From NCBI GenBank assembly GCA_032249235.1, contig JAVVGF010000001.1, positions 5,925 to 69,924 of the forward strand: 64,000 nucleotides of DNA, in the 5' to 3' direction. Source of the stretch: Thermoproteota archaeon. GTDB lineage: Archaea > Thermoproteota > Thermoprotei > Gearchaeales > Gearchaeaceae. The notes under the pieces are model-generated. The model had not been told where the DNA came from, ran no database searches, and was given only the letters and a program-made list of their open reading frames with translations. Position numbers and translations under genes: made by a program. The stretch's first letter is position 1; the number at the start of each line of letters is the position of its first letter. Shown here piece by piece: positions 9,744 through 55,624 of this stretch.

Positions 9744-11855
9744 ATGCAATTGGACTTAACAAGTTTTCCACTTTACATAGCTTTGGTATCTCTCTTATAT
9801 GCAGCGGTTCAAATCGCATTGTTATTGAGACAAAATCCTGGAAGCAAAAGAATGCAAGAAATTGCTAATGCGGTTAAAATCGGTGCTACAGCTTTCCTCA
9901 TTAAAGAATATTTAGTAATCCTTCCTGCAGGAGTAATATTAGCGATCGCTATTTATTTATTAGTTGGGCCAATTCCCGCACTAGGTTTCGTAACAGGTGC
10001 TTTATTTTCAGCTCTTGCTGGTTTCATAGGAATGAGTATAACAGTAAGATCCAGTTCAAGGGTAGCTCAAATAGCTAGTAAAGGCTTAGGTCATGCATTA
10101 AGTTTAGCCTTTAGAGGAGGAAGCGTAATGGGATTTAGCGTTGCAGGTTTTGCTCTTTTAGGATTGTCTTTATTCGTCTTATTATTTGGGAATGATATAG
10201 TGACGAGTCCAGCATTAATAGCTGGATTAGGATTTGGGGCAAGTTTAATTGCAATGTTCATGAGAGTTGGTGGAGGAATTTATACAAAGGCTGCAGATTT
10301 AGGTGCAGATCTAGTAGGTAAAGTAGAAGTAGGAATACCTGAGGATGATCCGAGAAATCCTGCAGTTATAGCAGATAACGTAGGAGATAACGTAGGAGAC
10401 TGTGCAGGAATGGGTTCGGACGTTTATGAATCTTATATAGTTATAGGAATTGCTTCGATAATTTTAGCAGCGCTATTATTACAACCAACCTCTGATTTCC
10501 CCTTCAAAGATTTCTCGCTTATTTATTTGCCACTTTTAATAGGTGCATTTGGAATAATAGGTTCAATCATTGGTTCATTATTCGTAAATCCAAAGTTGGG
10601 AAATAGATTACCTCCGATGAGGGTTTTAGATATTGCTTTCATAATTTCTAGCATAATTGTGATAACTCTAACTTACGTAATAAGCTACTCAATAATGCCT
10701 TCAAATATTGCTCAAAGTATAACTATCGCTGCCATAACTGGAGTAGTTTTAGTAGTGGTAATCGAAAAGATTGTAGACTACTATACTTCTTATAACTATA
10801 ATCCAACAAAGTCGATTGCTGAAGCATCTAAGATAAGCGCGGCTACAAACTTCTTGCAAGGATATTCTGTTGGTCTTAAAAGCACAGCTCCTAGTGCCTT
10901 AGCTTTAGTCATCGCAGTATTGATAAGTTATTTAAGCGGCTATTATGCTACTAACAATAGTCTTTTCGCAGTATATAACACTGCAATAGCTACGATGGCT
11001 ATGCTTTCTTTAACAGCTATAGTTATGTCCATAGATTCTTATGGACCAATTACTGATAATGCAAATGGAATTGTTGAGATGAGCGGATTAGGTGAAGATG
11101 TTAGGCTCGTAACCGAAAAATTGGATGCTGTTGGAAATACTGTCAAGGCTACGACTAAAGGTTTCGCCATAGCAAGTGCAGCATTATCTGCTCTAGCCTT
11201 ATTCCAAGCTTTTCAAACAGAAGTTGCAATCAAAGCACAAACTATTCCTAAATATATACAAGCATATGGTTCATCTTCAATACAGTTCGTTCTTTCAGAT
11301 CCAAAGGTTATAATCGGCTTATTAGTAGGAGGTTTGCTTCCTTTCTTCTTTTCTTCTTTCTTAATAAGCGCTGTAGGAAGGACAGCGATGAAGGTTGTTC
11401 TAGAAGTGAGGAGACAATTCAAAGAAATACCTGGCTTGTTAGAAGGAAAAGCTTCACCAGATTATAGCAAATGCATAGGTATAACTACGCAGGAATCTTT
11501 GAAAGAACTCGCTCTTCCTGGTTTGCTTGCAGTGTTAACGCCTATTGTTTTAGGCTTAATCCTAGGGCCTTTAGCTTTAGGAGGTCTTTTGATAGGAAGC
11601 GTAGTAAGTGGAGTTTTTCTAGCTTTACTCATGGCAAATGGAGGTGCAGCATGGGATAATGCCAAGAAATTCATCGAGCTAGGTAATTTTGGTGGAAAAG
11701 GAAGCGATGCTCATAAAGTAGCTATAGTGGGAGATACGGTAGGAGATCCATTTAAGGATACAGCAGGACCGTCATTGAACTCTTTGATAAAAGTCTTAAA
11801 CACAATATCTATAGTCTTCCTTTCAACTATAATGACTTATGCAATTCTAGTGTGA
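9744..11855 (+). CDS. hppA: membrane H+-translocating pyrophosphatase, K+-independent signature
   Basis: 703 aa, polytopic. GGGIYTKAADLGADLVGKVE, DNVGDNVGDCAGMGSD, GNTVKATTKGFAI and VGDTVGDPFKDTAGPSLN are all canonical. Confidence 0.95.
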   Translation: MQLDLTSFPLYIALVSLLYAAVQIALLLRQNPGSKRMQEIANAVKIGATAFLIKEYLVILPAGVILAIAIYLLVGPIPALGFVTGALFSALAGFIGMSITVRSSSRVAQIASKGLGHALSLAFRGGSVMGFSVAGFALLGLSLFVLLFGNDIVTSPALIAGLGFGASLIAMFMRVGGGIYTKAADLGADLVGKVEVGIPEDDPRNPAVIADNVGDNVGDCAGMGSDVYESYIVIGIASIILAALLLQPTSDFPFKDFSLIYLPLLIGAFGIIGSIIGSLFVNPKLGNRLPPMRVLDIAFIISSIIVITLTYVISYSIMPSNIAQSITIAAITGVVLVVVIEKIVDYYTSYNYNPTKSIAEASKISAATNFLQGYSVGLKSTAPSALALVIAVLISYLSGYYATNNSLFAVYNTAIATMAMLSLTAIVMSIDSYGPITDNANGIVEMSGLGEDVRLVTEKLDAVGNTVKATTKGFAIASAALSALALFQAFQTEVAIKAQTIPKYIQAYGSSSIQFVLSDPKVIIGLLVGGLLPFFFSSFLISAVGRTAMKVVLEVRRQFKEIPGLLEGKASPDYSKCIGITTQESLKELALPGLLAVLTPIVLGLILGPLALGGLLIGSVVSGVFLALLMANGGAAWDNAKKFIELGNFGGKGSDAHKVAIVGDTVGDPFKDTAGPSLNSLIKVLNTISIVFLSTIMTYAILV

Positions 11856-18312: not shown

Positions 18313-19827
18313 ATGTTTGTAAGCATAACTAATGAGATTGCAATTGATGAAGGCTCTATCTTCGCTGGTGGCTTAGGTGTTTTAGAAGGAGATAAATTTT
18401 ATGCTATGGCGAGATTAAATAAAGAATATCTTGTCTTGACTCCTTTTTATCCAAAGGGTTATATAAGATATGAATTTAAAAATAATGATCCAATTCCAGT
18501 CGAAGATAATTTTCCAGAAACTTTGTTAGATAAGTTAAAAGAAATATATAAAACTAAAATCACATTAAAGGATTTCTCAGTAAATTTAGGTTATTATGAA
18601 TATAAATTAAATACTGCCAGTATAGTATTCATAAAAATTTTGGATGATAAGTTAGCTAATGAGTATTTAGGCAGATTATATGACCATGGACAACAAAGAA
18701 TTATGTTTTATAGGTATCTTATCATATCAAAGGCCTGTCTTGATTTTCTTAGCAACTATATTGGTTTTAAAAATATCGATGTTATAGATATACAAGAGTC
18801 TTTCTTTGCCTTTCTTCCATTGTTTCTTATTGAGCTTGATGAAAGGCCTAAAATAAGATTAATTCTTCATACTCCTGTTCCTTGGGGGCATCCCAGTTTT
18901 TCTAGGGATCTTTTCAAAAATGAAATGCAATATGAGTTCATAGAAAGAGAAGTTAACATGACTACTTTAGCAGCCTCACTTTGCGATGAGATAATCACTG
19001 TGAGCAAAAAACATGAAGAGGTATCTAAAAAAATGTTACCACATTTCTCAAGAAAAATAAGACATGTAACGAATGGAATAGAAATATATCGATGGATGGA
19101 TCCAGAGTTGCTCAAACATTATCAAAATAATACATTGAGCATTGAGAATTTGAAAAGTATCAAAGCGAGAGCTAAATCGAATTTCTTAGATTTCCTGAAG
19201 AATTACAAAGAATTAAAAAAGGAAAATATGCTGATTTCATGGACTAGAAGGACAGTTACATACAAAAGACCGTATTTCATATTGAATTTCATCGAAGAAA
19301 ATCCAGACTTAAATGTAAATTTCATCTTAGCAGGAAAGACAGATCCTAGAGATAACGAGGGACTTTCTTATATGAAAAGAATGAAAGAGATTAGTGAAAG
19401 ATATTCGAATGTTGTATATATCTGGAAATATGATACAAATTTGGCTAAAATGGTTTTTCAAGCCTCAGATTTAATATTGTTTACACCTATTTCGGGCTGG
19501 GAAGCCAGTGGTACTTCTATGATGAAAGCAGGGATTAACGGAACGCCTACTTTGTCATCTAAAGATGGGGCATCTTTAGAACTAATAAAAGATGGCTATA
19601 ATGGATGGTTTTTTGGAGAGGAATTAAGAGAGCTCATAACACCAGGCTCTCCAAAAGCTTGGGAAGTAGATTCTCATGACTTTCAGGATTTCAGTAAAAA
19701 AATGAAAATGATTATTGATATATGGAATAAAGATAAGGATAAGTTTTATGAAATAGCCTTAAATGCCATTCTTTCTTTTGTACCATTTGTTTCAGCAGAT
19801 AGAATGTTGAAGGAATATTATGGATAA
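18313..19827 (+). CDS. short alpha-glucan phosphorylase-like protein (GT35-like)
   Basis: 504 aa. FAGGLGVLEGDKFYAMARL resembles the GGLGVLAGD motif. WEASGTSMMKAGINGTP resembles the EASGTSGMK pyridoxal-lysine motif. Confidence 0.6.
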   Translation: MFVSITNEIAIDEGSIFAGGLGVLEGDKFYAMARLNKEYLVLTPFYPKGYIRYEFKNNDPIPVEDNFPETLLDKLKEIYKTKITLKDFSVNLGYYEYKLNTASIVFIKILDDKLANEYLGRLYDHGQQRIMFYRYLIISKACLDFLSNYIGFKNIDVIDIQESFFAFLPLFLIELDERPKIRLILHTPVPWGHPSFSRDLFKNEMQYEFIEREVNMTTLAASLCDEIITVSKKHEEVSKKMLPHFSRKIRHVTNGIEIYRWMDPELLKHYQNNTLSIENLKSIKARAKSNFLDFLKNYKELKKENMLISWTRRTVTYKRPYFILNFIEENPDLNVNFILAGKTDPRDNEGLSYMKRMKEISERYSNVVYIWKYDTNLAKMVFQASDLILFTPISGWEASGTSMMKAGINGTPTLSSKDGASLELIKDGYNGWFFGEELRELITPGSPKAWEVDSHDFQDFSKKMKMIIDIWNKDKDKFYEIALNAILSFVPFVSADRMLKEYYG

Positions 19828-19937: not shown

Positions 19938-20957
19938 CTATCTTATGTAGAAATCTTTTACTCTTATTACATCAAAAGGATGCGGTGTGCTATATTCTTC
20001 TAGTAACAAATTCTCCTCAGCAACCAAGCTATGTATTGTTTTCGGTTTTATTCTAACAGGATTTCCTTGTACAAGCTTTTCTTTTCCTATTAGGTTTAGA
20101 CTTTCATCATAGAATTCGACGAACCCAAAACCTTTAATTGTATTTATTGTTTCATCCTTTTCAACATGATAATGAATCGAAGTTTTATACTCTGCTTTAA
20201 TAAACAACTCTTTGACTAAGTATTTTTCGTTGTTTACTATTATCTTTTCATATCCCCATGGTTTATCTTCTCTGTTTTTATAATATTCTCTAACATATTC
20301 AAGATCTTTAATAGAATCTATTGAATGCCAGAAGACATCTTCCATGTAACATGCTATATTACCTTCACTTGCAGCTTTAGGGAATACCGTTCTTTCTATA
20401 TCATTAAAATAATATTCATGTTTAAAGTAATCTAATGCTTCCCTCTTGAGATAATAAACACCTGCATTTATATAGTGCGGAAGAATTGGCTTTTCGAGAA
20501 AGTTTGTAATTTTTCCATCTTCTATGGATACAATACCATATGGGCTTTGCATTTTCGTTACTGCTATAATTATATGTTCTTTTCTTTTATTCGAGAATTC
20601 TATGAACTTCTTCAAATTAAAGTCATGAATTACATCACCGTTCATGATTACCATATCAGAATTGGTATTTTCTAATGCATTCTTTATAGCGAAGTGTGTG
20701 CCCATAGGTTTATCTTCTATTAAGTACTTAAGCTTCAAATTTTTCCATTCATTTCCAAATCGCTCCATAATTTTCTCGTATAAATGTCCTACCATTAGAT
20801 AGACTTCTTTTATTTCGCTATATCTTAGATCATTTAATTGCTTATCTAAAATCGTATAATTTTCTTTTATTTCAATTAGAGCTTTAGGGAAATTATTTGT
20901 AAGTGGCTGAAGCCTTTTTCCATAACCTCCAGCTAATATACCACCGACTACGTTCAT
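19938..20957 (-). CDS. sugar-1-phosphate nucleotidyltransferase fused to a cupin (mannose-1-phosphate guanylyltransferase/mannose-6-P isomerase type)
   Basis: 339 aa. N-terminal GGILAGGYGKRLQPLT. C-terminal cupin PWGYEK...SIHYHVEKDETI. Stop codon abuts the 3' end of tRNA-Asn. Confidence 0.8.
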   Translation of the reverse strand: MNVVGGILAGGYGKRLQPLTNNFPKALIEIKENYTILDKQLNDLRYSEIKEVYLMVGHLYEKIMERFGNEWKNLKLKYLIEDKPMGTHFAIKNALENTNSDMVIMNGDVIHDFNLKKFIEFSNKRKEHIIIAVTKMQSPYGIVSIEDGKITNFLEKPILPHYINAGVYYLKREALDYFKHEYYFNDIERTVFPKAASEGNIACYMEDVFWHSIDSIKDLEYVREYYKNREDKPWGYEKIIVNNEKYLVKELFIKAEYKTSIHYHVEKDETINTIKGFGFVEFYDESLNLIGKEKLVQGNPVRIKPKTIHSLVAEENLLLEEYSTPHPFDVIRVKDFYIR

Positions 20958-32068: not shown

Positions 32069-32457
32069 GCGCTCCTTCATACTGGAGGGAAAAAGTATAT
32101 AGATATAGGCTTATCGCTACATATTGCGAGAACTGCAACAAGAAGTTTTATCCTCCAAGACCTATTTGTTTATATTGCAATAATCAAAATCTTAAAGAAG
32201 TAAAATTACCTAACACGGGCACTCTTCTCGAATATACACAAGTTTTTCAAACATTTCCTGAATTCTCAAAGCTTGCACCTTATTATCTTGGCTTAATAAA
32301 ATTGGATGATGGAACAATTATAGTTGCTCAATTGACAGACGTTGAACGTTCAGAACTTAAAGAAGGAATAAGAGTTGAAGCTGTTTTTAGGAAGATGTAT
32401 GAAGATGGCGAAGCAGGATTAATTTATTATGGCATAAAATTTAGACCTTTAGCTTGA
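32065..32457 (+). CDS. DUF35 Zn-ribbon/OB-fold scaffold protein of the thiolase/HMGS complex
   Basis: 130 aa. Zinc ribbon CENCNKKFYPPRPICLYCN followed by an OB fold. Conserved third gene of the trio. Confidence 0.85.
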   Translation: MSAPSYWREKVYRYRLIATYCENCNKKFYPPRPICLYCNNQNLKEVKLPNTGTLLEYTQVFQTFPEFSKLAPYYLGLIKLDDGTIIVAQLTDVERSELKEGIRVEAVFRKMYEDGEAGLIYYGIKFRPLA

Positions 32458-33363
32458 GAGGTATAAAGGTTTAATAAAATCATTGTGATCTTGAATAACA
32501 ATTCTATATTCTCCTTCTTTTCCTTTTTCTAAATTTCCTCTAACTAAAGCTATTTCTCCTTTTTTAAGCATCTCGCAGTATCTAAGTTTAAAGGAAACTA
32601 TCGTGTATTCTTCGCTGTTTTTACTTCTAGCTGAATAAACAGATGGGAAGAAGAAACTTTTTGAATCGTTAATTATTTCAATTTCAATTTCTTTTTTACC
32701 GAGAATTCTACTAGGTTCCAAATTTTTTCTCAAAATAAATTTTAAAGAATATATTCTGTCTTTAAACCTTCCTTCGATTATTTTTCTTCTTTCTAATAGT
32801 TCAAATAAAGGAAATTCTATTATATTTGTTAACTCTCGTTCTTGGTATAGCTTAATCAAATCTTCTCTACTAAGAGGCATTAATATACCTCTTTCTCTGA
32901 GATTTTTTAAAGCTTTATAAACAATTTCAGGGTTTTTTCCATAGTATGCAATATCCATGTCTGAATCCTCTTTATGTAAACCAACAAGTATAGAACCTCC
33001 TATTCCAAAATTTCCCAATTCTTCTTTAGCTTCACTTGCGATTAGTTCGACAAATTCTTTAACTACTTTTTCAACATCATCATTAGGTTCCTTGAAGATT
33101 CTTTTTAATTTTGCAATAGGATTATAATATACTTTAATCTGGCTTTTTTCGAGAATAATTGCTTCCCTTTTCAAATATTTTGACTTTTTTGTAATATTAT
33201 AATCAACTTTTTTAATAAATTCTTCTATATTTTTTATTTTATGATATTTTTCATTTTCTTTTATATATTTTGGTAAAACAAATAATTCATCATATTTTGG
33301 ATTATAGTAGATTACATAATATATATTATCATATTTATCTTTTATAGCTGCTAATTCTAGCAT
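32449..33363 (-). CDS. Pol-beta-superfamily nucleotidyltransferase with C-terminal OB-like domain, function unknown
   Basis: 304 aa. NTase motif FGIGGSILVGLHKEDSDMDIAYYG (G[GS]-x9-13-DxD). C-terminal beta-rich region EIEIEIINDS...GEIALVRGNLEKG. Start overlaps the gcvT stop (TAATG). Confidence 0.6.
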   Translation of the reverse strand: MLELAAIKDKYDNIYYVIYYNPKYDELFVLPKYIKENEKYHKIKNIEEFIKKVDYNITKKSKYLKREAIILEKSQIKVYYNPIAKLKRIFKEPNDDVEKVVKEFVELIASEAKEELGNFGIGGSILVGLHKEDSDMDIAYYGKNPEIVYKALKNLRERGILMPLSREDLIKLYQERELTNIIEFPLFELLERRKIIEGRFKDRIYSLKFILRKNLEPSRILGKKEIEIEIINDSKSFFFPSVYSARSKNSEEYTIVSFKLRYCEMLKKGEIALVRGNLEKGKEGEYRIVIQDHNDFIKPLYLSS

Positions 33364-34442
33364 TATTTTTTAAAGAAAGGAGGTTCTTGAATTCTTGCAT
33401 CATAGAATTTATCTCTAATCTTAATCTGTATTGTTCCTCCAAGATAAAAATAATTTGCTTTAATGTAACCCATCGCTATTCCTTTTCCTTGACTAGGTGA
33501 ATAACCTCCGCTAGTTATTTTACCTATCATTTTTTTACCTGCATATACTTCGGAGCCTTTTCTAGGTAGAGGTCCCTTATCTTTCATGATAAAACAAGCC
33601 CTAATTACATCTACTCCTTCTTCAATAATCTCTTCTATTGCTTTTTTACCAATATATTCACCTTTATTCAATGAAAAAATCCAATATCTTGCTCTTATTG
33701 GATCTATTTCCTCATTTATTTCATTACCATAAAGCAAAAAACCTGCTTCTAATCTTAATATATCTCTACTAACGATACCGCATGGTTTGATTCCATTATT
33801 TACAAAGTTTAACCATAATTTCTTACCCTCTTCAATACCTGTTATTATTTCAAAGCCGTTTTCTCCAGTCCATCCACTTTTGCTTATTAATAGAGTCTTA
33901 ACGCCCATTATTTCGTAATCTTTAAGAAAGCTTTCTCGCTCGAGATTTAAGGGTAGGAATTCTAATTTCTCTATTTTTCTGCCTTGAATTGCAAGCATTG
34001 CAGTTTTTAAAGTTATATCCTCAACTTCAACATTGCAATTTAAAAGTTTCGACTTTTCTTTAATCCAGTTCAATACTTTTATCCTATTAATTGCATTGCA
34101 TACTATTATAAATTCCTCTTCTTCGAGCATGAATAAGGATAAGTCATCTATAAATCCTCCTTTTTCATTAAGCATGGCTGCCGGAATGATTATTTTACCT
34201 GGTTTTAGCTTCAAAACATTTTTAGTTATGAGATAATCAAGTAAATGCTTTGAATCTTTTCCTTTAACTATTATTCTTCCCATATGAGAAACATCAAATA
34301 CTCCCATCTCATTTCTAACAGCGAGACTTTCTTCTATTGAATTTGTAAAGCTCAATGCTACTTCCCATCCTGCAAACTCTCCAATTTCTGCTTTTTTACT
34401 AACATGTATTTCTTTAAGAGGCGAAGGAATTAAGTTTTCCAT
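33363..34442 (-). CDS. gcvT: glycine cleavage system T protein (aminomethyltransferase)
   Basis: 359 aa. SPLKEIH...FAGWEVALSF, GVFDVSHMGRI, GWTGENGFEI motifs. Confidence 0.9.
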   Translation of the reverse strand: MENLIPSPLKEIHVSKKAEIGEFAGWEVALSFTNSIEESLAVRNEMGVFDVSHMGRIIVKGKDSKHLLDYLITKNVLKLKPGKIIIPAAMLNEKGGFIDDLSLFMLEEEEFIIVCNAINRIKVLNWIKEKSKLLNCNVEVEDITLKTAMLAIQGRKIEKLEFLPLNLERESFLKDYEIMGVKTLLISKSGWTGENGFEIITGIEEGKKLWLNFVNNGIKPCGIVSRDILRLEAGFLLYGNEINEEIDPIRARYWIFSLNKGEYIGKKAIEEIIEEGVDVIRACFIMKDKGPLPRKGSEVYAGKKMIGKITSGGYSPSQGKGIAMGYIKANYFYLGGTIQIKIRDKFYDARIQEPPFFKK

Positions 34443-34506
34443 TATGAAAAGAAGGATTTTGTTCGATTTAACTTTATTAACCTTTTTTTAATTACTAAAA
34501 AATAGT

Positions 34507-34580
34507 AGCGCCGTGGTGTAGCTGGTCAAGCATGTAGGGCTTTGGACCCTGAGACCCAGGTTCGAATCCTGGCGGCGCTA
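34507..34580 (+). tRNA. tRNA-Gln (anticodon TTG)
   Basis: 74 nt cloverleaf folded by hand. Acceptor AGCGCCG/CGGCGCT (A1-U72), anticodon arm TAGGG-CTTTGGA-CCCTG, T arm CCAGG-TTCGAAT-CCTGG, discriminator A. No CCA, no intron. Confidence 0.85.
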
Positions 34581-36251
34581 TTTGCGAAGGTATTTTCCTT
34601 TGAGTTGATTTAATAAGCTGTCAATTTTTGTTTTAGATTCTTTAAGAGTTTTTGAATGAATCTCTACCATTCTTTTATACATTTCGGGCTGTATTTTCTT
34701 CATCTTATGTGAATTTCTTGTCTCCTTTAGTGCATTTCGGGCTTTTACTAATTTTGAATATTCAAGGTTGATACCTGATATGATAGATTTTGTCTCTGGA
34801 TATTTTGTAATCAAGAAATTAGAAATCTTTTTTAGTTCGTTTTCCTTATTTTCGATTTCTCTTCTTAGATTATTCAGCCTTGCTGTATAATCATGTTTCT
34901 TTATTAATCCTTTATCTAATCGTAAGTCGAGTTGTTCAATTTCTTCATAATCTAATATCAAACTTTCAATAAGATTTATGAATTTAGGAATTTCAGGAAT
35001 TGCGACTATCTTTTCTAATACAGGCCTTCTGCTATATCTAGTATATATAAAGACAAAAAATAATAGAATTATTATAATTACTAATATTTGATTAACTGAG
35101 TTCAAAGAATATATGAAAGGATTTATTGTTGTTTTTAGTGATATATTAAAATTATAATTAGGATAAACATTAGATAAATAATATATATACTCGTTTCCGT
35201 CTTGCTGTGTTACTAATTTATCTGGAATAGGATACAATTCTGCATTAACCAAGTATTTGATAGTTATAATTAGCGTGAAATTATCTATGATATAAAAGTT
35301 GGATTGTAAAGGATTAAATGATAAGTTTATCTGTTGTTGATTTCCGTTTACACTTCCTATTTTGTTAATATCTATTTCGCTTGTGATTATAATTTTTGCT
35401 TTTGTATAGTTCAAGTAAGCGTTAGCATAAATAGTGCTAAAAAGAGGATATCTTAATGAAACCGCGTTGTTAGTATAGCTGAGATCTCCAAAATCATCTC
35501 TCACAGAGATTATACTTGCATCAGGTAAGATATATGGGATCCATGTTCTTACAGTTTGATTAAAACCTATGTATTCAATGATAAAAGTATCTATTATCTT
35601 TACCTTTTCCAAGTTATCTATTATTATGTTTCTAGTTAAGCTGTTTATTTTTACCCAAGGTAGATCATTTGGAGGGTTGAAGGAAAGTGTAAAAAGTGTT
35701 GTATTATATGGGGATAATGCCGTTGAATTATAATAGATATAGTAAGTACCGTTTTCATATTTTTGAATTGCATTTTTAGGTGATGATATTATAATGTTTG
35801 TTGGTGGGAAAGAAAATTTGACCTTTGTTGTTACAGTTGAAATAGGTAAGTCTGTCATAAGATAAGCGAACATATCCGTTTTTACACCTGACTGTATTTG
35901 ATTAAAAATTCTCTGATCATATACCCTAGTTATCGTGATGTTTCCTTCAAAACCATTTATAGGAATTCTGAACCCGAGATAGTCATCTTTAATCGCTCCC
36001 CATTGAATTGGATATTTAGGGTTTGTCTGTAAAGAATAAAGAGATTTGTATTCTTCTGGCGTTAAATAAATTGTTAAATTAGAAATTTGTCCTTTTATTT
36101 CTACATTATCTTGAACAATAATAAATCCTGGGAAGATCTGAATGTATCTGTTCACTTTCAATTGGTTTTGTTGTTCAGCAGCAACTGTGATGATACAAAT
36201 CGATAATACTATTAGAGTGAGTAACAAAGTTGCAATGCTTTTTCTTTGCAT
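34578..36251 (-). CDS. type I membrane glycoprotein, ribophorin I (OST1/RPN1)-like by eye alignment
   Basis: 557 aa. Signal peptide MQRKSIATLLLTLIVLSICIITVAA, about 360-aa ectodomain with at least 10 N-x-S/T sequons, single TM ILVIIIILLFFVFIY, about 150-aa Lys/Glu-rich helical tail. Several colinear motif matches to eukaryotic ribophorin I (listed in findings). The ORF itself is solid; the family call is tentative. Confidence 0.5.
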   Translation of the reverse strand: MQRKSIATLLLTLIVLSICIITVAAEQQNQLKVNRYIQIFPGFIIVQDNVEIKGQISNLTIYLTPEEYKSLYSLQTNPKYPIQWGAIKDDYLGFRIPINGFEGNITITRVYDQRIFNQIQSGVKTDMFAYLMTDLPISTVTTKVKFSFPPTNIIISSPKNAIQKYENGTYYIYYNSTALSPYNTTLFTLSFNPPNDLPWVKINSLTRNIIIDNLEKVKIIDTFIIEYIGFNQTVRTWIPYILPDASIISVRDDFGDLSYTNNAVSLRYPLFSTIYANAYLNYTKAKIIITSEIDINKIGSVNGNQQQINLSFNPLQSNFYIIDNFTLIITIKYLVNAELYPIPDKLVTQQDGNEYIYYLSNVYPNYNFNISLKTTINPFIYSLNSVNQILVIIIILLFFVFIYTRYSRRPVLEKIVAIPEIPKFINLIESLILDYEEIEQLDLRLDKGLIKKHDYTARLNNLRREIENKENELKKISNFLITKYPETKSIISGINLEYSKLVKARNALKETRNSHKMKKIQPEMYKRMVEIHSKTLKESKTKIDSLLNQLKGKYLRK

Positions 36252-36310
36252 AATCGTTCTTTACTTATAAGGTTAAATAAATATTAAATCTTTATTCGAC
36301 ATTAAGAAAT

Positions 36311-37606
36311 ATGACTAGCCTAATAGACACGGTTCCTGAAGAAGTGAAACTTAAGCATAAGGTGGCACTTCCTGAAGGGATGGGCGAATTTTATTCTTTA
36401 AAATTCATCGAAGAAAAGCTTAGCAAGAATAGAATATTTCCTCCAGAAAGGATATTCAGTCCAGATCCTCCCTTTTTTTCATTCATACCGTCTGCAGTAG
36501 ATTATGTTTCGTTAAGTAGTGAATTACTTACAGCTTATACACCTTATCAGCCCGAAGTTTCTCAAGGTCTTTTACAGATTCTTTTTGAATATCAAAGCAT
36601 GATATGTGAACTGACTGGAATGGATGTTTCAAATGCTTCTCTTTATGATCATTCTACAGCTTTATGCGAAGCTATAAGAATGGCATTGAAGTATACAGAA
36701 AGGAACAAGGTTTTGTTACCTAAATATATGAGGAGGGAAAGAAAGTTAGTCGTTAAAAGTTATATGGAGACGATAGGTGTAGAATTATACGAATATAAGA
36801 TTGAAAAAGAAACAGGAAAGATCGATCTTTCAGATATAGAAAATAATTTAAAAAATGCAGCATGTATTTATGTTGAAAATCCTTCTTATTTCGGCATTAT
36901 CGATGATAATCTTCCTAAACTTTCCGACATAGTTCATAAAAATGACTCACTTTTCATAGTAGGAGTAGAACCAATATCTTTAGGCATAATAAGAGAACCG
37001 GGTTCTTATCAAGCAGATATAGTTGTGGGCGATGCTCAACATTTAGCCATACATCCTTTTTATGGGGGGCCTTCTTTGGGTATAATTGCTTGTAGGGAAG
37101 AATTGAAGTTGATTCATCTAATGCCTGGAAGAATAGTAGGATGCACAACAACTTTAGATGGTTCAGAACTCGGTTTTTCATTAGTGCTACAAGCAAGAGA
37201 GCAACATATTAAGAGGGAGAAAGCTACTTCTAATATAACTACAAATCAGTCATGGTTAGCAGTAAGGGCAGCCATATATTTAGCTTTGTTAGGTAAAGAA
37301 GGATTAAAAAGGCTAGCCGCAAGAATATTACTCAATACACAAAGACTGAAAAAGGTATTAGAAGATTTTGGTTTCATATCCAAATTTCCTCGTGCTTTGC
37401 ATTTTAGGAACTTACTTATGAGCAAAGAGGAAATTCATAAAATTCAAAACGAGATGTTGAAAAAGGGCTATTTCTTTGGTAAATTATTGAGCAGTGAATT
37501 TGAAGGTTTCGAGAATTCAATATTGCTAGGAGTAAGCGAGTATCAAGATTCAAAATCTTTTGAAGAATTAAGAAATGCATTATTAGAGGTGACTAGAAAT
37601 GTATAA
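36311..37606 (+). CDS. gcvPA: glycine dehydrogenase (decarboxylating) subunit 1
   Basis: 431 aa. TAYTPYQPEVSQGLLQ..FEYQ and SNITTNQ motifs of GcvPA. Confidence 0.9.
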   Translation: MTSLIDTVPEEVKLKHKVALPEGMGEFYSLKFIEEKLSKNRIFPPERIFSPDPPFFSFIPSAVDYVSLSSELLTAYTPYQPEVSQGLLQILFEYQSMICELTGMDVSNASLYDHSTALCEAIRMALKYTERNKVLLPKYMRRERKLVVKSYMETIGVELYEYKIEKETGKIDLSDIENNLKNAACIYVENPSYFGIIDDNLPKLSDIVHKNDSLFIVGVEPISLGIIREPGSYQADIVVGDAQHLAIHPFYGGPSLGIIACREELKLIHLMPGRIVGCTTTLDGSELGFSLVLQAREQHIKREKATSNITTNQSWLAVRAAIYLALLGKEGLKRLAARILLNTQRLKKVLEDFGFISKFPRALHFRNLLMSKEEIHKIQNEMLKKGYFFGKLLSSEFEGFENSILLGVSEYQDSKSFEELRNALLEVTRNV

Positions 37607-39140
37607 TCAAGCTAAGTATAGAGAAAGATTAGTATTCCAATACGAGGATGTTCGAAGTGATCATGCTTACTGGGTCAATGATGAAGAATTAAGTAAAGCA
37701 TTATCTTTAATTCCAGAAACGATGAGAAGAAAAGAAGATCCAAACATACCTAATCTTCCTGAGAATTTAGTTGTTAGACATTATACTAGGTTAGCTAGGA
37801 TGAATCATGCAATAGATATTTCAACATATCCTTTAGGTTCATGCACTATGAAATATAATCTTAAAAGCATGGAAAGGCTTGCAACAATTAAAGAGATCGC
37901 ATTATTACATGATAGTTATCCTGAAGAGTATTGTCAAGGTATTCTTGAGCTTCTTTATTTGCTTGAACAATACTTATGCGAAATAACAGGCATGGATAAG
38001 TTTTCCTTCCAGCCTTCTGCGGGTGCTCATGGGGAGCTGACTGGTGTATTCATTATTAAGAAATATCACGAAGTAAACGGCCAAAAGGATTTAAAAAATG
38101 AAATTATCGTGCCAGACTCTGCACACGGTACAAATCCTGCAAGCGCAGCTATGGCAGGATTCAAAGTTGTAGAGGTTAAATCTAATAAAGAAGGAACTGT
38201 AGATATTGAGGATTTGAAATCTAAGGTTTCGAAAAGGACTGCAGGTTTAATGTTAACAAATCCTAACACTTTAGGCTTATTTGAAAAAGATGTACTCGAG
38301 ATATCTAAAATAATACACGAAGTTGGAGGATTGCTTTATTATGATGGAGCTAATCTAAATGGTATTTTATGCTATGCAAGACCTGGCGATATGGGCTTTG
38401 ATATTGCTCATTTAAATCTCCATAAAACATTTGGTACTCCACATGGTGGAGGAGGTCCTGGTGCGGGTCCATTAGGTGTTAAATCTTTTCTCAAAGAATT
38501 CCTTCCAGTTCCTATAATTGAGAAAAAAGAAAATAAATACGTTCTTAATTATGATCTTAAGTATAGTATAGGGAGAGTTAAAGAGGGTTTTGGAAATACC
38601 CTAGTTCTTTTGAAAGCCTTGCTATATATTTTAACTAAGGGTTATGAAGGATTAAAGGAAGCAAGAGAAAAAGCAGTAAGGAATACAAGATATTTCCTAG
38701 AACAAATGCAAGGTATTGAAGAGATTTCTTTAACACATAATCCTAAGCTTATGAGATATCATGAATGCTTATTGAGTGCTTCTGTATTAAAGAAAAAAAC
38801 AGGCATAGATGCAAAAGATATAGCGAAAAGAATTTTTGATTATGGTTTTCATCCTCCCATGATTTACTTCCCATTGATCGTAGATGAAGCATTGTTAATA
38901 GAATTTACAGAAGATGAGACTGAAGAAAATATAAAACAATATGCTCAAGTTCTTAAAAGAATAATACGCGAAGCATACGAGAATCCTTCTATTTTAAAAA
39001 GCGCTCCGCATAAAACAGCTATTGGCAGATTAGATGAAGTAAAAGCTTCACATCCTAGAACTTTAACATTGTCATGGAAAAAAGCTAAAGAAAGATATGA
39101 TGAACTTTTGAAAAAACTAGCTAATTATTCTGCCGATTAA
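37599..39140 (+). CDS. gcvPB: glycine dehydrogenase (decarboxylating) subunit 2
   Basis: 513 aa. YPLGSCTMKYN, and NLHKTFGTPHGGGGPGAGP containing the PLP lysine. Confidence 0.95.
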   Translation: MYNQAKYRERLVFQYEDVRSDHAYWVNDEELSKALSLIPETMRRKEDPNIPNLPENLVVRHYTRLARMNHAIDISTYPLGSCTMKYNLKSMERLATIKEIALLHDSYPEEYCQGILELLYLLEQYLCEITGMDKFSFQPSAGAHGELTGVFIIKKYHEVNGQKDLKNEIIVPDSAHGTNPASAAMAGFKVVEVKSNKEGTVDIEDLKSKVSKRTAGLMLTNPNTLGLFEKDVLEISKIIHEVGGLLYYDGANLNGILCYARPGDMGFDIAHLNLHKTFGTPHGGGGPGAGPLGVKSFLKEFLPVPIIEKKENKYVLNYDLKYSIGRVKEGFGNTLVLLKALLYILTKGYEGLKEAREKAVRNTRYFLEQMQGIEEISLTHNPKLMRYHECLLSASVLKKKTGIDAKDIAKRIFDYGFHPPMIYFPLIVDEALLIEFTEDETEENIKQYAQVLKRIIREAYENPSILKSAPHKTAIGRLDEVKASHPRTLTLSWKKAKERYDELLKKLANYSAD

Positions 39141-40409
39141 ATAATGCGGAGTTGCTTCTTCAATTAATGATTCTTTGAATTTACCTATCAGGCTATTATC
39201 TTCAGTTTTTATAATCACACATCTGTAATCTTGAGCTCTTGCTTCTAAAAATCCTTTTTCTCCTTTTCCTGTAATTAAGACTTTGAGAATTTTTCCTATA
39301 AACTTTTCATTCTTCTTAAGAGTTATTTCATCGCATATCTTTACGAGCTCTTTCGATCTTCTTTTCTTAATTGAATCGGGTAGTTGAATTAATGAAGCAG
39401 CTTTAGTCAAAGGTCTCTGTGAATATTGGGCAACATGAACCTTGTCGAACTCAATTTCTTTAATTAATTTAATTGTGTTCTCGAATGCTTCTTCATCTTC
39501 ACCTGGATATCCTACAATTATATCGGTTGCTATGAACAAATCTGGATGTTCGCTTCTCAGATCTTTTATGAAATCTTTAAATTCTTTTACTGTATGCATT
39601 CTTTGCATATCTTTCAATATTCTATCATCGCCGCTTTGAACAGGAACATGACAGAATTTGTATACGTGTTCATCATGATATAGTTTCTTTAGTCCATTAA
39701 CTATCCTAAAACCGAACCATGGAGTAAACATTCCTATTCTTATTCTATATTCTCCTTTAATCTCTAACAAGCTTTCAACAAGCTCAATCAAGTTAGTATT
39801 AATATCTAAGCCATATACAGCGGTATCTTGGGCAGTTAGATATATCTCTTTAGCTCCTCTTTCAATTGCATCCTTAAAAGCTTCCTTAATCAGAGAAGGT
39901 CTATAACTATAAAGAGTTCCTCTAGTATATTTTACAGCACAGAATGAACATGAGCCTAAACAGCCTGATGCAATAGGTAATTCATATGGACCTTTACCAT
40001 CATAACTAGGTATAATTTCATAAGTTCTATCGCTTCCTCCTATGAATAAATTACTTTCTATTTTGTCTTTAGTAATTATAATAGGTATCTCCTTTATTAA
40101 TGAGGGCGTTACAAATATTGCATTTTTGTTCACATTGTATAGCTTGAATGGATTAAGCTTAACCATGCAACCAGTAACTATGATCTTAGCGTTGTTTTTT
40201 TCAGCAATTTTAGAATATTTCTCTAAAGCGTGAATGGCTTTTAATTCTGATTCATATCTTACTGCACAAGTGTTGATTATGATCAAATTAGCTTCTTCAG
40301 GATTTTCTGTTTTAATAAATGATAGTGAATCTAAGGATTGAGAAATGAACCTACTATCAGCTTCATTAAACGTGCATCCATATGTTTCAATAAAGTACTT
40401 GAGTTGCAT
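39117..40409 (-). CDS. radical-SAM methylthiotransferase, MiaB-like archaeal type (MtaB/CDKAL1-like)
   Basis: 430 aa. N-terminal UPF0004 Cys pattern (YGCTFN, NTCAV, GC), radical SAM GCLGSCSFCAV, C-terminal TRAM-like domain. Confidence 0.8.
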   Translation of the reverse strand: MQLKYFIETYGCTFNEADSRFISQSLDSLSFIKTENPEEANLIIINTCAVRYESELKAIHALEKYSKIAEKNNAKIIVTGCMVKLNPFKLYNVNKNAIFVTPSLIKEIPIIITKDKIESNLFIGGSDRTYEIIPSYDGKGPYELPIASGCLGSCSFCAVKYTRGTLYSYRPSLIKEAFKDAIERGAKEIYLTAQDTAVYGLDINTNLIELVESLLEIKGEYRIRIGMFTPWFGFRIVNGLKKLYHDEHVYKFCHVPVQSGDDRILKDMQRMHTVKEFKDFIKDLRSEHPDLFIATDIIVGYPGEDEEAFENTIKLIKEIEFDKVHVAQYSQRPLTKAASLIQLPDSIKKRRSKELVKICDEITLKKNEKFIGKILKVLITGKGEKGFLEARAQDYRCVIIKTEDNSLIGKFKESLIEEATPHYLIGRIIS

Positions 40410-40435
40410 CAGATTAAATTAACTTAAATCCTTTA

Positions 40436-42103
40436 TTAAATACTTACTCTTCTAATTTCTCTCAATTTGTTTTCTATTTCCTCGATTGAATATTTCCTGA
40501 AAATGATCTTAGGTTCTGAAATTTTATGTTCCTCTTTGAAAGGATCATAGAAAGCATCTTCCCATTTTATAGCTAGAGGCAAATTAAGCATTCTTCTTAT
40601 TTCTTCACATTTCTTAGGCATAATGGGATGAAGAACGATACTCAACACATGAAGTATGCGTGCTAATACATATATTATGCGAGCTGTTTCTTCTTTGTTC
40701 GTCTTAATTTTTTCCCATGGCTTTTTTTCATTGAAAAACCAATTACCTATTCTAGCTATTTCCATTGCTGAATTCAGTGCATTCCTTAATTTTACTTCTT
40801 TAAAGCTCGCGTCTATTTCCTTTATTAGGTTTTCAACTTTATTCAGGATTTCTTTTTCTTCATCTTTCAATTCTTTCGGTTTTGAAATAGAATAGTTAAA
40901 GTAGTTTTTAACGAATGTTAACACCCTGTAAATTAAATTACCTAATGTATCATTAAGATGTGAATTGACAAGTTCTACGAAAATCTTAATTGAGAATTCC
41001 GTATCCCTTTCTTCAGGTCTAAGATAAACTAATGTATATCTCCAATAATCAGGTTCAGCGATTTGTAAAGCTTCATCTAGCCAAATACCTATGCCTTGAC
41101 TTTTAGAGAACTTCTTACCTTCATATGTTAAGAATTCAGTTGCTGAAATTATATGCGGTAAGTTGTAATCTTCTCCTGAAGCCATCAATAAAGCTGGAAA
41201 TATAACTGCATGGAATGGTATATTATCCTTTCCTATGAAATAATAAGTCAGCGCATTCTTATTGAACCAATATTCTTTCCATCTATCATCTCTGAAATAT
41301 TCTATTGTCGCAGAAATGTAACCTAGTACTGCTTCAAACCATACATAAATTGTTTTATTTTCAAAGTTTTCAAACGGCGCAGGAATTCCCCATTTGTTAT
41401 CTCTAGTTAAAGCCCTTGCTCTAAATTCATCTTTAATGTATCCGAGGCTTATTGTTTTGATTCTTTTATCGAAATAAGGATTGTTATTAATGTATTCTAT
41501 AACTTTATCTCTAAGCTTAGGAAAATCGATGAAACAATGTTCTGTTTCTCTTTTTGAAGGTGGTCTTCCGCATACTACGCATTTAGGATTTATAAGTTGG
41601 GTAGGTTCCAATAGATTTCCACAATTTTCGCATTGATCTCCTCTAGCTTTCTCATAGTTGCATATAGGGCATGTACCGATTACGAATCTATCTGGCAAAA
41701 ATATTTTATCGTTTTCGCAATAAAGTTGCGTTACTTTTTCAAAGAAGGTAAAACCGTTTTTATGAACTTTTCTATAAAATTCTCTCACGAATTCTTTATG
41801 AACTTCACTTTCTGTTCTTGTATAGTTACTAAAAGAGATTTCAAAATCTTCGAAAATTTTCTTTATTTTAGCATGCATTTCATCAGTAAGCTCTTTTGGC
41901 TTTTTATTCCTTTGAATTGCTTCAACTTCTATTGGTGTACCATGTTCATCAGAGCCGCTTACGAATACAACATCATCTCCTTTGAGTCTGTGATATCTTG
42001 CTATAACGTCTGCAGAAAGTACTGAACCTATTAGGTTACCTAGATGGGGTATCGAATATGCATAAGGCCAAGCACATGTAACGAGTACTTTTAGAGAGAC
42101 CAC
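40436..42103 (-). CDS. metG: methionine--tRNA ligase
   Basis: 555 aa, GTG start. HIGH-type PHLGNLIG, zinc knuckles CPICN...CENCG and CVVCG, KMSKS-type KFSKSQG. Confidence 0.95.
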   Translation of the reverse strand: MVSLKVLVTCAWPYAYSIPHLGNLIGSVLSADVIARYHRLKGDDVVFVSGSDEHGTPIEVEAIQRNKKPKELTDEMHAKIKKIFEDFEISFSNYTRTESEVHKEFVREFYRKVHKNGFTFFEKVTQLYCENDKIFLPDRFVIGTCPICNYEKARGDQCENCGNLLEPTQLINPKCVVCGRPPSKRETEHCFIDFPKLRDKVIEYINNNPYFDKRIKTISLGYIKDEFRARALTRDNKWGIPAPFENFENKTIYVWFEAVLGYISATIEYFRDDRWKEYWFNKNALTYYFIGKDNIPFHAVIFPALLMASGEDYNLPHIISATEFLTYEGKKFSKSQGIGIWLDEALQIAEPDYWRYTLVYLRPEERDTEFSIKIFVELVNSHLNDTLGNLIYRVLTFVKNYFNYSISKPKELKDEEKEILNKVENLIKEIDASFKEVKLRNALNSAMEIARIGNWFFNEKKPWEKIKTNKEETARIIYVLARILHVLSIVLHPIMPKKCEEIRRMLNLPLAIKWEDAFYDPFKEEHKISEPKIIFRKYSIEEIENKLREIRRVSI

Positions 42104-53525: not shown

Positions 53526-53725
53526 CTATTAGACTTATATAATAATGTTATGAAGAACAATGTTAAAAAGCCAACTAAGAAACCTAAAAATACGCCGCTT
53601 GCAAGAGTTAAAATATTCATTCCTCCTGCAATCATGCTTCTTATTAGGCTCACTAATTGGTATGTTGAAATTATGTATACCAACATCATAATGCTGAGTA
53701 AAAATAACATCTTATTCATATCCAT
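53522..53725 (-). CDS. 67-aa two-helix membrane protein, unknown
   Basis: Two hydrophobic helices. Overlaps the cytochrome b stop by 10 nt and the next gene by 4 nt. Confidence 0.45.
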   Translation of the reverse strand: MDMNKMLFLLSIMMLVYIISTYQLVSLIRSMIAGGMNILTLASGVFLGFLVGFLTLFFITLLYKSNR

Positions 53726-54969
53726 TTCTTCATCTTGTATATTCCATAAGTTACACCGAACATTAAAGCAGCTACTAATATGCTAAGTCCTGTAACTAAT
53801 GTGAAATCTGTAGATGTTTCAAAGCTCCAACCAAAAGCTCCTTTTGTATCAAGATATAGTTTGAACAAGAATATTATAACGGTATATAATACTGCTTCAG
53901 CAACAATAATGTTACCTATTAAGACGAACTTAAATCGTTTTGAAATATGGACTTCTTTTCTTCTATCTATGAAAGGTAAAAGAAGTATGTATATTCCTAC
54001 AATAATTAATATTGCTAAAGTAGTAAATGAAGCAACATCTTGTACTCCTAGGCTTCTCATAAAAGAAACATAAGAATCTGGAAATCTTAATCTTATTAGA
54101 GTATATACAAAATAGAAATACCATTCTGGTAAAGGTATATCAGCTAATGGCGCTCTAGGGTCATATACTTCTCCTAATTTTGCTGGAATTAAAGAAGCGA
54201 AAAGTATGACGATGCCAGTATGTATTAGAGCCCACTTACTAACGAATACAGCTCCCTTTGGGAACCATGGATAATGTTTGATTTTCTTCGGATTTCTCTT
54301 ATCTCTTAGAGGATCGAAAGCCCCATGGTTTTCGAACATGTATAGCTTTATTGCTAAAAGCAAAATAATGCTTCCAGGCAATATGAAAACGTGTAATATG
54401 AAGAATCTCTGAACGATATCCTGGTTTCCAATACCTTCCATTATGAAAGCTATGAAATTGCCTAAGAATGGAACTTGCAAAGCGAAGTTATATCCAACTT
54501 GTGTAGCATAAACTGATTGAGCTGTATAAGGCAAAAGATATCCAGTAAAAGCTTGAGCTAATACAATAAATCCTAATATTAAACTAACAATCCACATGAG
54601 TTCTCTAGGTCTTTTATATGCTCCACTAATCAATTGCCTGAAGAAATGCAACGCTGCTGTTATAAGCATTCCATATGCTGAATACAAATGCAAGGTCCTC
54701 AAAGTTAAACCGAAAGGAATATTTTCATCAACGAACTTAACGCTTGAATAAGCTTTAGGTAAGCCATCTGCGCCGAGTGCTGAAGTTGGCACAAAATAGA
54801 ATACTAATAATACACCTGTTACAACAAGAATGACAAAGAACGTTAAAACCATTGCACCTAACCAATGAGAAATTTCTAATGAATATGCAGGTATTGGTCT
54901 AAGGAAAGTATTTGTTATTCCTATTCTCTTATCGAACCAATCAAGTATTTTTTTAATTTTCTCGCTCAT
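53716..54969 (-). CDS. cytochrome b (long form, SoxN/SoxC-like) of a Rieske/cyt b complex
   Basis: I use ATG 54969 (MSEKIKK...), 1 nt after the Rieske stop; the track start is 55008. Helix B His pair LHLYSAYGMLITAALH (x13 spacing), helix D RFFILHVFILPG, Qo-site PEWYF motif, about 9-10 TM. Confidence 0.8.
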   Translation of the reverse strand: MSEKIKKILDWFDKRIGITNTFLRPIPAYSLEISHWLGAMVLTFFVILVVTGVLLVFYFVPTSALGADGLPKAYSSVKFVDENIPFGLTLRTLHLYSAYGMLITAALHFFRQLISGAYKRPRELMWIVSLILGFIVLAQAFTGYLLPYTAQSVYATQVGYNFALQVPFLGNFIAFIMEGIGNQDIVQRFFILHVFILPGSIILLLAIKLYMFENHGAFDPLRDKRNPKKIKHYPWFPKGAVFVSKWALIHTGIVILFASLIPAKLGEVYDPRAPLADIPLPEWYFYFVYTLIRLRFPDSYVSFMRSLGVQDVASFTTLAILIIVGIYILLLPFIDRRKEVHISKRFKFVLIGNIIVAEAVLYTVIIFLFKLYLDTKGAFGWSFETSTDFTLVTGLSILVAALMFGVTYGIYKMKKWI

Positions 54970-54970
54970 A

Positions 54971-55624
54971 TTAACTTTGTTCTCCACACGTTCTTGCAGT
55001 ATTATCATTAACTATTTCTCCACCTAAGAAACCCGGCCTTAAATTATTTGGAAGATCTGTTCCTTCTAATCCTGCAGGTCCTTTTCCAAGTATTACAGGT
55101 CCTTCCATTCCTACAGCATAAATATCTCCTGTAGCTTCGTCATACTCCAATATTACTCTAGGTAATCTTCTAGGCGCTGGACCTGCAAGTACCCTTGCAT
55201 TATGAGTTACATCATATACTGAAAGATGGCATAGACAAACCATGACTTTTTGATATTTGTTATAAAACGGTTCAGTATTTGGATAATATTGATTTATGAT
55301 ACATCCGAGATGTTGACATATAGCGCTAAATGCAACTATATCTTGATCAGGACCTATGCCATTCTCAACCTTTTCTCCGACTTTTATTAATAAATTGACT
55401 TCACTTGTTAAAGGATAGCAAAAACGTATGAAGCTACCATTTTTTAATTCTTTTATGTTCGCTATCTTAACTCTAGGATATTTTGGTCCAACCTGTGTAG
55501 CTGAAGGATTCAAGTAATTCGCTACTGAACCTACACCAAGAATGGTTGTGATTATTGAAGCTCCTATAATTCCCTTTATGAGCGTCCTTCTCTTTTCATC
55601 TATACTTTCTTTATTCTCTGCCAT
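54971..55624 (-). CDS. Rieske [2Fe-2S] protein with Tat signal (SoxL/SoxF-like)
   Basis: 217 aa. Twin-arginine EKRRTLIKG plus TM anchor. Cluster boxes CQHLGC and CLCHLSVY. Confidence 0.9.
   Translation of the reverse strand: MAENKESIDEKRRTLIKGIIGASIITTILGVGSVANYLNPSATQVGPKYPRVKIANIKELKNGSFIRFCYPLTSEVNLLIKVGEKVENGIGPDQDIVAFSAICQHLGCIINQYYPNTEPFYNKYQKVMVCLCHLSVYDVTHNARVLAGPAPRRLPRVILEYDEATGDIYAVGMEGPVILGKGPAGLEGTDLPNNLRPGFLGGEIVNDNTARTCGEQS

Follow-up and report, generated by a model that had tools for sequence, protein, structure and literature searches.

A divergent ribophorin I/OST1 homologue with a predicted four-helix cytosolic tail in a Thermoproteota archaeon

Examination of a 64-kb stretch of DNA from a Thermoproteota archaeon (64,000 nucleotides of contig JAVVGF010000001.1, hereafter the window) revealed a complete open reading frame (ORF) on the minus strand, at 34578..36251, that encodes a divergent homologue of ribophorin I/OST1. 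The ORF comprises 557 amino acids (aa), with an ATG start and a TAG stop codon. Ribophorin I is an accessory subunit that links the oligosaccharyltransferase (OST), the protein-glycosylating enzyme of eukaryotes, to the ribosome. Profile comparisons and predicted structures make secure the homology of the window protein, over its full length, to the family of human RPN1, yeast Ost1 and the OST1 of Lokiarchaeon MK-D1. We consider it probable, though well short of certain, that the gene is the Thermoproteota orthologue of OST1 and that its product is, by analogy, a type I membrane glycoprotein which docks onto AglB and binds the ribosome. An original prediction, made from the sequence by eye, had proposed a ribophorin I/OST1 homologue that keeps the helical tail of the RPN1 type, and this proposal is now supported by hhalign, by transitive profile matches and by two AlphaFold/Foldseek runs.

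Results

Homology to ribophorin I at the family level

An indexed protein search found six close relatives of the window protein, which are 44-99% identical to it and none of which carries a precomputed Pfam domain. Their alignment (A1) defines what we call the window clade and contains 100+ invariant positions. Used as a profile against 1.84 billion representatives, A1 retrieved 150 proteins at E<=1e-3, nearly all of them 550-620 aa long and colinear with the query. A total of 85 full-length family members were then aligned (A3), and 57 of these were independently matched by the Pfam family Ribophorin_I (PF04597), with a best E value of 7.3e-26.

To avoid circularity, a further alignment (A4) was restricted to 71 distant archaeal members and left out the window clade together with its nearest relatives. 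The A4 profile matched human RPN1 over its full length (6S7O_E, E=7.9e-47), as well as 8WHN (E=1.6e-33) and yeast Ost1 (6C26_1, E=4.1e-22). Comparison of A1 with A4 by hhalign gave a probability of 100% (E=2.9e-53) over 535 columns, from the signal peptide to the last helix. The window protein alone scored 238.4 bits against A4, and 200 shuffles that kept the composition within signal peptide, ectodomain, transmembrane segment and tail separately reached at most 8.3 bits. In the shuffled-sequence test suggested along with the original prediction, the match is thus far beyond chance. Scored separately, the ectodomain reached 102.8 bits and the tail 78.9 bits, the shuffled parts at most 8.9 bits; since the ectodomain is significant by itself, the helical tail is not what carries the match. 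Weak coiled-coil matches to keratin, tropomyosin and CdvA also appeared in the profile searches.

Full-length homology to ribophorin I/OST1 (PF04597) is therefore found at the level of the family, the single-sequence tests being negative. The sole direct match of the single sequence was obtained with phmmer against the PDB, where residues 410-552 aligned with 8WHN_A ('Ribophorin 1 superfamily protein') at E=1.8e-5; a profile of the six closest homologues matched 8WHN at E=3.7e-6.

The register of the by-eye alignment with RPN1 was checked by aligning the window protein and RPN1 each to A4 and reading off the resulting pairing, in which identity amounts to 16.7% over 508 aligned positions. Nine of the 11 sub-motif pairs proposed by eye fell in the same register, including SLTRNIIID with SMTRVIEVS (9/9 positions), KTKIDSLLNQL with VTKIDHILDAL (11/11) and ILPDASIISVRDDFGDLSYT with its 21-letter RPN1 counterpart (20/20). 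The two remaining pairs are shifted by a few residues: QIQSGVK with QITQSEKQ (0/7 in range) and HKMKK with GKLKK (2/5, offset by 3). In the same induced alignment, the N-terminal segment of the window protein pairs with the signal-peptide region of RPN1, and its tail follows that of RPN1 colinearly down to the final residue.

Predicted topology and structure

Hydropathy analysis revealed two hydrophobic segments, at residues ~3-27 and 386-405. The first resembles a signal peptide and has a putative cleavage site, V-A-A|E, near residue 25. Accordingly, residues 1-25 (36177..36251; this and the following features all lie on the minus strand) are predicted to form a cleavable signal peptide with a hydrophobic core at ~5-24, and AlphaFold2 models a helix of lower pLDDT at residues 2-19. 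Residues 26-377 (35121..36176) make up a predicted extracellular all-beta ectodomain, supported by the AlphaFold2 model, its own score against A4 and the Foldseek matches, and containing all N-x-S/T sequons of the protein. These number exactly 10, all within residues 58-371, and the tail is free of them; shuffled ectodomains contain 5.3 on average (p ~0.03). A single transmembrane helix is predicted at residues 378-407 (35031..35120), where the hydropathy peak of 2.65 at residues 385-404, the model and the alignment to the RPN1 transmembrane segment agree. It is followed by an R/K-rich juxtamembrane cytosolic linker at residues 408-419 (34995..35030), modelled as coil with a pLDDT of 46-68, and by a strongly basic cytosolic four-helix bundle at residues 420-557 (34581..34994), which is predicted from the model, the 8WHN match and the score of the tail against A4. 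The 152 residues from 406 to 557 are rich in K, E, L and I (15.8% K, 10.5% E) and have a net charge of +13. Hydropathy, sequon distribution and the AlphaFold2 model thus all predict the type I topology of ribophorin I, signal-peptide cleavage and membrane orientation being inferred from the sequence. The anatomy first described for this ORF, with a signal peptide, an ectodomain bearing at least 10 sequons, one transmembrane helix and a K/E-rich tail of ~150 aa, is confirmed by hydropathy, the sequon count and the model.

With the 85-sequence alignment, AlphaFold2 produced a model of mean pLDDT 92.9 and pTM 0.70. Strands are found throughout residues 30-376, mostly with a pLDDT above 90 in the ectodomain, and are followed by the transmembrane helix, the low-confidence linker and four tail helices at residues 420-446, 452-483, 485-516 and 522-554. 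Because this alignment held Pfam-positive relatives, the prediction was repeated with the six clade sequences only, which yielded the same secondary-structure layout with a pLDDT of 85.5.

Foldseek searches of the PDB, which along with structure prediction had been suggested as a check against OST1/RPN1 chains, placed human and yeast RPN1/Ost1 chains in all of the top seven positions in both runs. For the model from the deep alignment these were 8B6L_O (1.9e-25), 6S7O_E, 8PN9_E, 6S7T_E, 7OCI_A, 6EZN_A and 6C26_1 (2.9e-14), and the next, unrelated match, at ~7e-5, was weaker by about nine orders of magnitude. The clade-only model recovered the identical seven matches, at 3.9e-25 to 1.4e-14, and the same 8WHN match. 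The two-domain beta-sandwich ectodomain of Ost1/RPN1 is thus present in the predicted model and reproduced with the clade-only alignment. Chains without a tail (6S7T_E, 7OCI_A, 6EZN_A and 6C26_1) matched the model at E=2.1e-19 to 2.9e-14. Superposition of 8WHN on the predicted tail gave a target-normalised TM-score of 0.77 and a root-mean-square deviation of 2.8-2.9 A at 24-25% identity; full-length TM-scores of ~0.45 reflect differing relative domain orientations.

Conservation of the cytosolic tail

The four predicted helices and the match to 8WHN in sequence and structure place the window protein among tail-bearing, RPN1-type proteins, which have a cytosolic four-helix bundle of ~150 aa. 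The tail is 146-166 aa long in all 85 relatives, and is net positive in 99% of them, with a median charge of +10 (A3). It is also the most conserved region of the family, with a mean top-residue fraction of 0.41 versus ~0.30 in the ectodomain, and the juxtamembrane linker is the least conserved segment. This conservation and charge are compatible with a conserved cytosolic partner, probably one that binds nucleic acids, such as the ribosome, and two published results agree with this reading. The cytoplasmic domain of MK-D1 OST1, solved as the crystal structure 8WHN (Carilo et al. 2024, PMC11417166), forms a four-helix bundle whose topology is that of the human RPN1 tail, and it can pull down human ribosomes. 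In the OST-A complex, the RPN1 bundle touches the ribosome, eL28 being the named ribosomal contact, and its truncation leads to OST-A-specific hypoglycosylation (PMC13112475).

Within the tail of archaeal OST1, conservation is highest in two loop motifs of the A3 consensus, G-K-I-x-x-x-x-Y and R-Y-R-x-G-x-I-S-x-x-x-Y. They sit between helices, at the equivalents of window residues 448-455 and 515-525, and have the RPN1 counterpart '...AGKLKKDTY'. These inter-helix motifs are candidates for a conserved binding surface.

Comparison with known ribophorins

Human RPN1 (6S7O_E, 8B6L_O and 6S7T_E, from OST-A and OST-B) has the same arrangement of signal peptide, two-domain beta ectodomain, transmembrane helix and four-helix tail of ~150 aa. 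It aligns colinearly from the signal peptide to the last helix and gives the best Foldseek match (E=1.9e-25). The two proteins differ in several respects: they are only ~17% identical, the window protein lacks a direct Pfam match, its tail carries a charge of +13 against +2 in human RPN1, and some loops of RPN1 are longer, such as an insertion of ~18 aa after the equivalent of window residue 232. Moreover, RPN1 resides in the endoplasmic reticulum, in a complex of eight or nine subunits, whereas the window protein is predicted to lie in the cell membrane.

Yeast Ost1p (6C26_1, 6EZN_A, 7OCI_A) has a homologous ectodomain and transmembrane helix (Foldseek 1.9e-15 to 2.9e-14; A4 profile 4.1e-22). 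However, the 476-aa yeast protein stops just past the transmembrane helix and has no four-helix bundle, which the window protein retains.

The OST1 of MK-D1 (Candidatus Prometheoarchaeum syntrophicum; 8WHN, PMC11417166) shares the archaeal cell-membrane setting, but it comes from an Asgard archaeon and the window protein from a member of the Thermoproteota. MK-D1 moreover has genes for Ost3/6 and for subunits of TRAP (PMC11417166), none of which is seen in the window. Ribosome binding was assayed for the MK-D1 tail (PMC11417166), whereas the window tail was compared with it by sequence and predicted structure.

Among relatives from TACK archaea, KYH42048.1, RJS80355.1, MCS7364311.1 and MGC8947975.1 (Bathyarchaeota, Culexarchaeia and Thermoprotei) are examples which the profile of the window clade matched at E=1e-9 to 1e-32; they belong to the same 550-620 aa class and have the same tail. 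Most family relatives are recognisable by Pfam PF04597 (the 57 of 85 above), unlike the window clade (6 clusters), whose members are annotated as hypothetical protein. Synteny with a glycine-cleavage (gcv) gene cluster is a feature of the window clade itself.

Distribution and rate of evolution

The genomes that encode four of the related loci (L001-L004) are labelled Crenarchaeota, Thermoproteota or Thermoprotei archaeon, in keeping with the TACK-like genome suggested at the outset. Labels of the distant family members comprise Thermoproteota, Thermoprotei, Bathyarchaeota, Ca. Culexmicrobium (Culexarchaeia) and Odinarchaeia. One of them, the Bathyarchaeota fragment KYH42048.1, already bears the name 'Ribophorin 1 superfamily protein' in NCBI, all others being named 'hypothetical protein'.

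The block gcvPB-gcvPA-OST1-gcvT is conserved in seven related loci. When window positions 33363-42103 were compared with L001-L004, OST1 was the fastest-evolving gene of the block, with 35-52% identity against 58-90% for its neighbours, and its failure to match Pfam is probably due to this. The lone neighbour of comparable divergence is a 304-aa ORF, at 38% in L004. The OST1-like gene has a GC content of 0.286 and a GC content at third codon positions (GC3) of 0.24, the other genes of the window having a GC3 of 0.229 +/- 0.025. A rough neighbour-joining tree, with distances near saturation, placed the window clade with other Thermoproteota/Thermoprotei sequences and human RPN1 with Odinarchaeia.

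Discussion

A possible role in N-glycosylation

By analogy with mammalian OST-A and with the MK-D1 tail, the following mode of action can be proposed. The signal peptide would send the two-domain beta-sandwich ectodomain outside the cell, one helix would span the membrane and the basic bundle would stay in the cytoplasm. The transmembrane helix and the ectodomain may dock onto the catalytic subunit AglB/STT3, as in mammalian OST-A, and the basic tail may bind the large ribosomal subunit (probably its rRNA) beside SecYEG. Secreted proteins would in this way be N-glycosylated as nascent chains, while they emerge, and the ectodomain would help to present or retain the acceptor polypeptides. Both the AglB partnership and the ribosome docking of the window protein are what we infer from homology, and a multi-subunit, ribosome-coupled OST in this lineage appears plausible on the same analogy.

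Several observations weigh against assigning the window protein this identity and role. An hmmscan against Pfam, which had been suggested as the check for PF04597, returned nothing relevant for the window sequence beyond a meaningless match at E=1.5, so that the homology is visible only at the family level; a search of NCBIfam gave no match, and BLASTP against human RPN1 was not significant (E=0.31). The hhalign comparison with the single RPN1 sequence was not significant either (E=0.046), its register being already that of the by-eye alignment; for these two comparisons RPN1 was represented by residues 8-607, rebuilt from a printed profile alignment. With no direct Pfam, NCBIfam or BLASTP match, the identification rests on intermediate sequences and predicted structure, and AlphaFold, being trained on the PDB, may have seen yeast Ost1/OST. 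eL28 is not known from archaea, and any ribosome contact of the window protein must therefore differ in detail from that in OST-A. The fast evolution of the gene could reflect a relaxed or shifted function.

The gene context, too, gives the OST partnership no support. We compared 84 related loci, consisting of L001-L004 and 80 archaeal metagenome loci, the latter drawn from a scan based on a tight seven-sequence alignment. A screen for the motif WWD[YWF]G found no STT3/AglB ORF either in the window and L001-L004 or, up to 10 kb from the OST1 gene, in the 80 metagenome loci. Pfam scans of the large, membrane and unannotated ORFs of the window detected no STT3 or OST3_OST6 domain, and no Ost3/6-like gene was found in the 64-kb window or up to 10 kb from the OST1 gene in the 84 related loci. 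The neighbours in the metagenome loci look like housekeeping genes (HDAC-like, AsnB-like, adenylosuccinate lyase, eS1, SerRS, MCM and Hel308), as read from representative sequences without Pfam.

Alternative explanations

These same observations are at the heart of the strongest alternative, namely that the window protein is a true OST1 homologue that works independently of AglB, as a ribosome receptor in its own right, as an accessory of the SecYEG translocon or, outside the cell, as a holdase of nascent chains, and that the partnership with OST arose later on the Asgard/eukaryote line. Besides the missing AglB and Ost3/6 genes, it can draw on the translation and housekeeping neighbours found in two lineages (MetRS, eIF1A, eIF2-beta, NMD3, SerRS and eS1), on the fact that the cytosolic tail and not the ectodomain is most conserved, and on the sole experimental datum from archaea, which concerns binding of the tail to the ribosome and not association with OST. 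On the other hand, the family is an integral OST subunit wherever it has been structurally studied (PDB 6S7O, 8B6L, 6EZN and 6C26), and the AlphaFold2 model and its Foldseek matches preserve, at high confidence, the fold through which the ectodomain of eukaryotic members touches STT3. Missing operon linkage is, in addition, weak evidence in archaea. In Asgard genomes, too, the genes for eukaryote-like OST subunits tend to lie scattered. We regard AglB-independent function as a serious contender which is nevertheless unlikely, and retain the AglB-docked, ribosome-binding orthologue as the preferred reading.

If the gene had been acquired recently, by horizontal transfer from an Asgard archaeon or from a eukaryote, it would be uninformative about ancestral TACK biology and might be decaying. 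A patchy labelled distribution and very fast evolution relative to the neighbouring genes would fit such an event, but the GC and GC3 values are typical of the window, the synteny is identical in relatives down to 35% protein identity, and the ORF is intact, with its 100+ positions invariant across the clade. The grouping with Thermoproteota/Thermoprotei in the neighbour-joining tree points the same way, although weakly given the saturated distances. This grouping and the native composition jointly speak against recent transfer, which we consider very improbable.

Finally, the view of the window protein as a generic surface glycoprotein of archaea, having a coiled-coil-like tail and owing its likeness to RPN1 to AT-biased low complexity and selective by-eye matching, could appeal to the negative Pfam, NCBIfam and BLASTP tests, the low identity to RPN1 and the weak keratin, tropomyosin and CdvA matches, but it is practically untenable, being refuted by the composition-preserving shuffles, the score and fold match of the beta-rich ectodomain alone (the latter to tail-less yeast Ost1), the hhalign result and the motif register.

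Relation to earlier work and significance

Lombard (2016, PMC4973528) reported no prokaryotic homologues of the accessory OST subunits. Eme et al. (2023, PMC10307638) refer to prokaryotic homologues of Ost1 and Ost3 as already described from Asgard archaea, and ribophorin I usually figures as an Asgard eukaryotic signature protein (ESP), in PMC10307638 and in several other Asgard papers. A single sentence in Carilo et al. (2024, PMC11417166) places OST1 and OST3/6 in both TACK and Asgard archaea; the supplement to that paper contains no list of TACK sequences. The assumption made in the original prediction, that archaeal homologues had been discussed only for Asgard archaea, is slightly out of date, as PMC11417166 and the name given to KYH42048.1 extend the range to TACK. 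This kind of protein, tail included, and its presence in TACK were thus known before. What is new, on the evidence of alignments and models, is a divergent, Pfam-invisible and syntenically stable Thermoprotei-like clade predicted to have the full four-helix tail, with an identification backed by predicted structure.

This clade lends concrete, structure-backed support to the one-line statement on OST1 in TACK in PMC11417166. A complete OST1, including the four-helix bundle, appears to be vertically maintained in a Thermoprotei-like lineage while escaping Pfam, which suggests that ESP censuses based on Pfam/InterPro matches undercount fast-evolving clades. It also provides more organisms in which to ask whether archaeal N-glycosylation is co-translational and ribosome-coupled, the window gene being by itself no proof of such coupling. 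A bolder proposal, which is possible but which we would not count on, is that non-Asgard Thermoproteota run a eukaryote-like, ribosome-docked OST of AglB and OST1 at the cell membrane, beside SecYEG, and that the coupling of N-glycosylation with translation predates the split between TACK and Asgard archaea. If true, coupling through the ribophorin bundle would not be an Asgard or eukaryotic innovation, and the archaeal tail, unusually basic and well conserved, would represent the ancestral, rRNA-binding form.

Genomic surroundings and other genes of the window

The OST1-like gene is flanked by gcvT (33363-34442, minus strand) on one side and by gcvPA (36311-37606, plus strand) and gcvPB (37599-39140, plus strand) on the other, all three verified with Pfam; gcvPA and gcvPB are transcribed divergently from it. 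Its placement between gcvT and gcvPA/gcvPB and next to tRNA-Gln, as reported earlier, was recovered with ARAGORN and Pfam. The tRNA-Gln(TTG) gene, detected by ARAGORN and read in the sequence, lies at 34506..34581 on the plus strand, convergent with the ORF, whose stop codon overlaps its 3' end by 3-4 nucleotides (nt). The overlap with the TAG stop (34578-34580, minus strand) corresponds to the acceptor-stem end and the discriminator of the tRNA; the two genes thus have common 3' ends, leaving no room for a terminator between them. On the other side, an AT-rich intergenic region of 59 bp (36252..36310), shared with gcvPA, is the presumed promoter region, as judged from a reading of its sequence.

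Directly downstream of gcvT, with a 1-nt overlap, lies the 304-aa ORF mentioned above (32449-33363, minus strand), which has no Pfam match. Its position is kept in L001-L004 and L085, with 38-60% identity, and its segment 'GIGGSILVG...DSDMDIAYYG' resembles by eye the motif of pol-beta-type nucleotidyltransferases, which makes it a candidate for such an enzyme.

In 49 of the 80 metagenome loci (L005-L084), a conserved soluble protein of ~114 aa (e.g. L076, 9350-9694) is encoded upstream of OST1, on the same strand and at a distance of ~65-700 nt. Reading of representative sequences also revealed HDAC-like and asparagine-synthase-like genes on the opposite strand, downstream of OST1. In 34 metagenome loci, OST1 is directly followed by conserved small ORFs; these were considered as possible Ost4/Ost5-like partners and rejected, as they are S/T/H/C-rich antisense shadow ORFs devoid of hydrophobic segments.

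Sugar-related genes had been noted elsewhere in the window, and dehydrogenase, GT1 glycosyltransferase and nucleotidyltransferase genes could indeed be located. They encode a UDP-glucose/GDP-mannose dehydrogenase (4714-6012, plus strand), a glycogen-synthase/phosphorylase-like GT1 glycosyltransferase (18313-19827, plus strand) and a sugar-1-phosphate nucleotidyltransferase (19938-20957, minus strand). These genes are 14-30 kb away from the OST1-like gene, and no syntenic linkage between them was seen in the related loci examined. A 237-aa protein encoded at 7529-8242 (minus strand) has ~6 predicted transmembrane segments and no Pfam match. The window further carries genes for a membrane H+-pyrophosphatase (9744-11855, plus strand; Pfam E=2e-247) and for a cytochrome b/Rieske pair (53716-55624, minus strand), which together suggest a respiratory lifestyle for this low-GC (~31%) Thermoproteota lineage.

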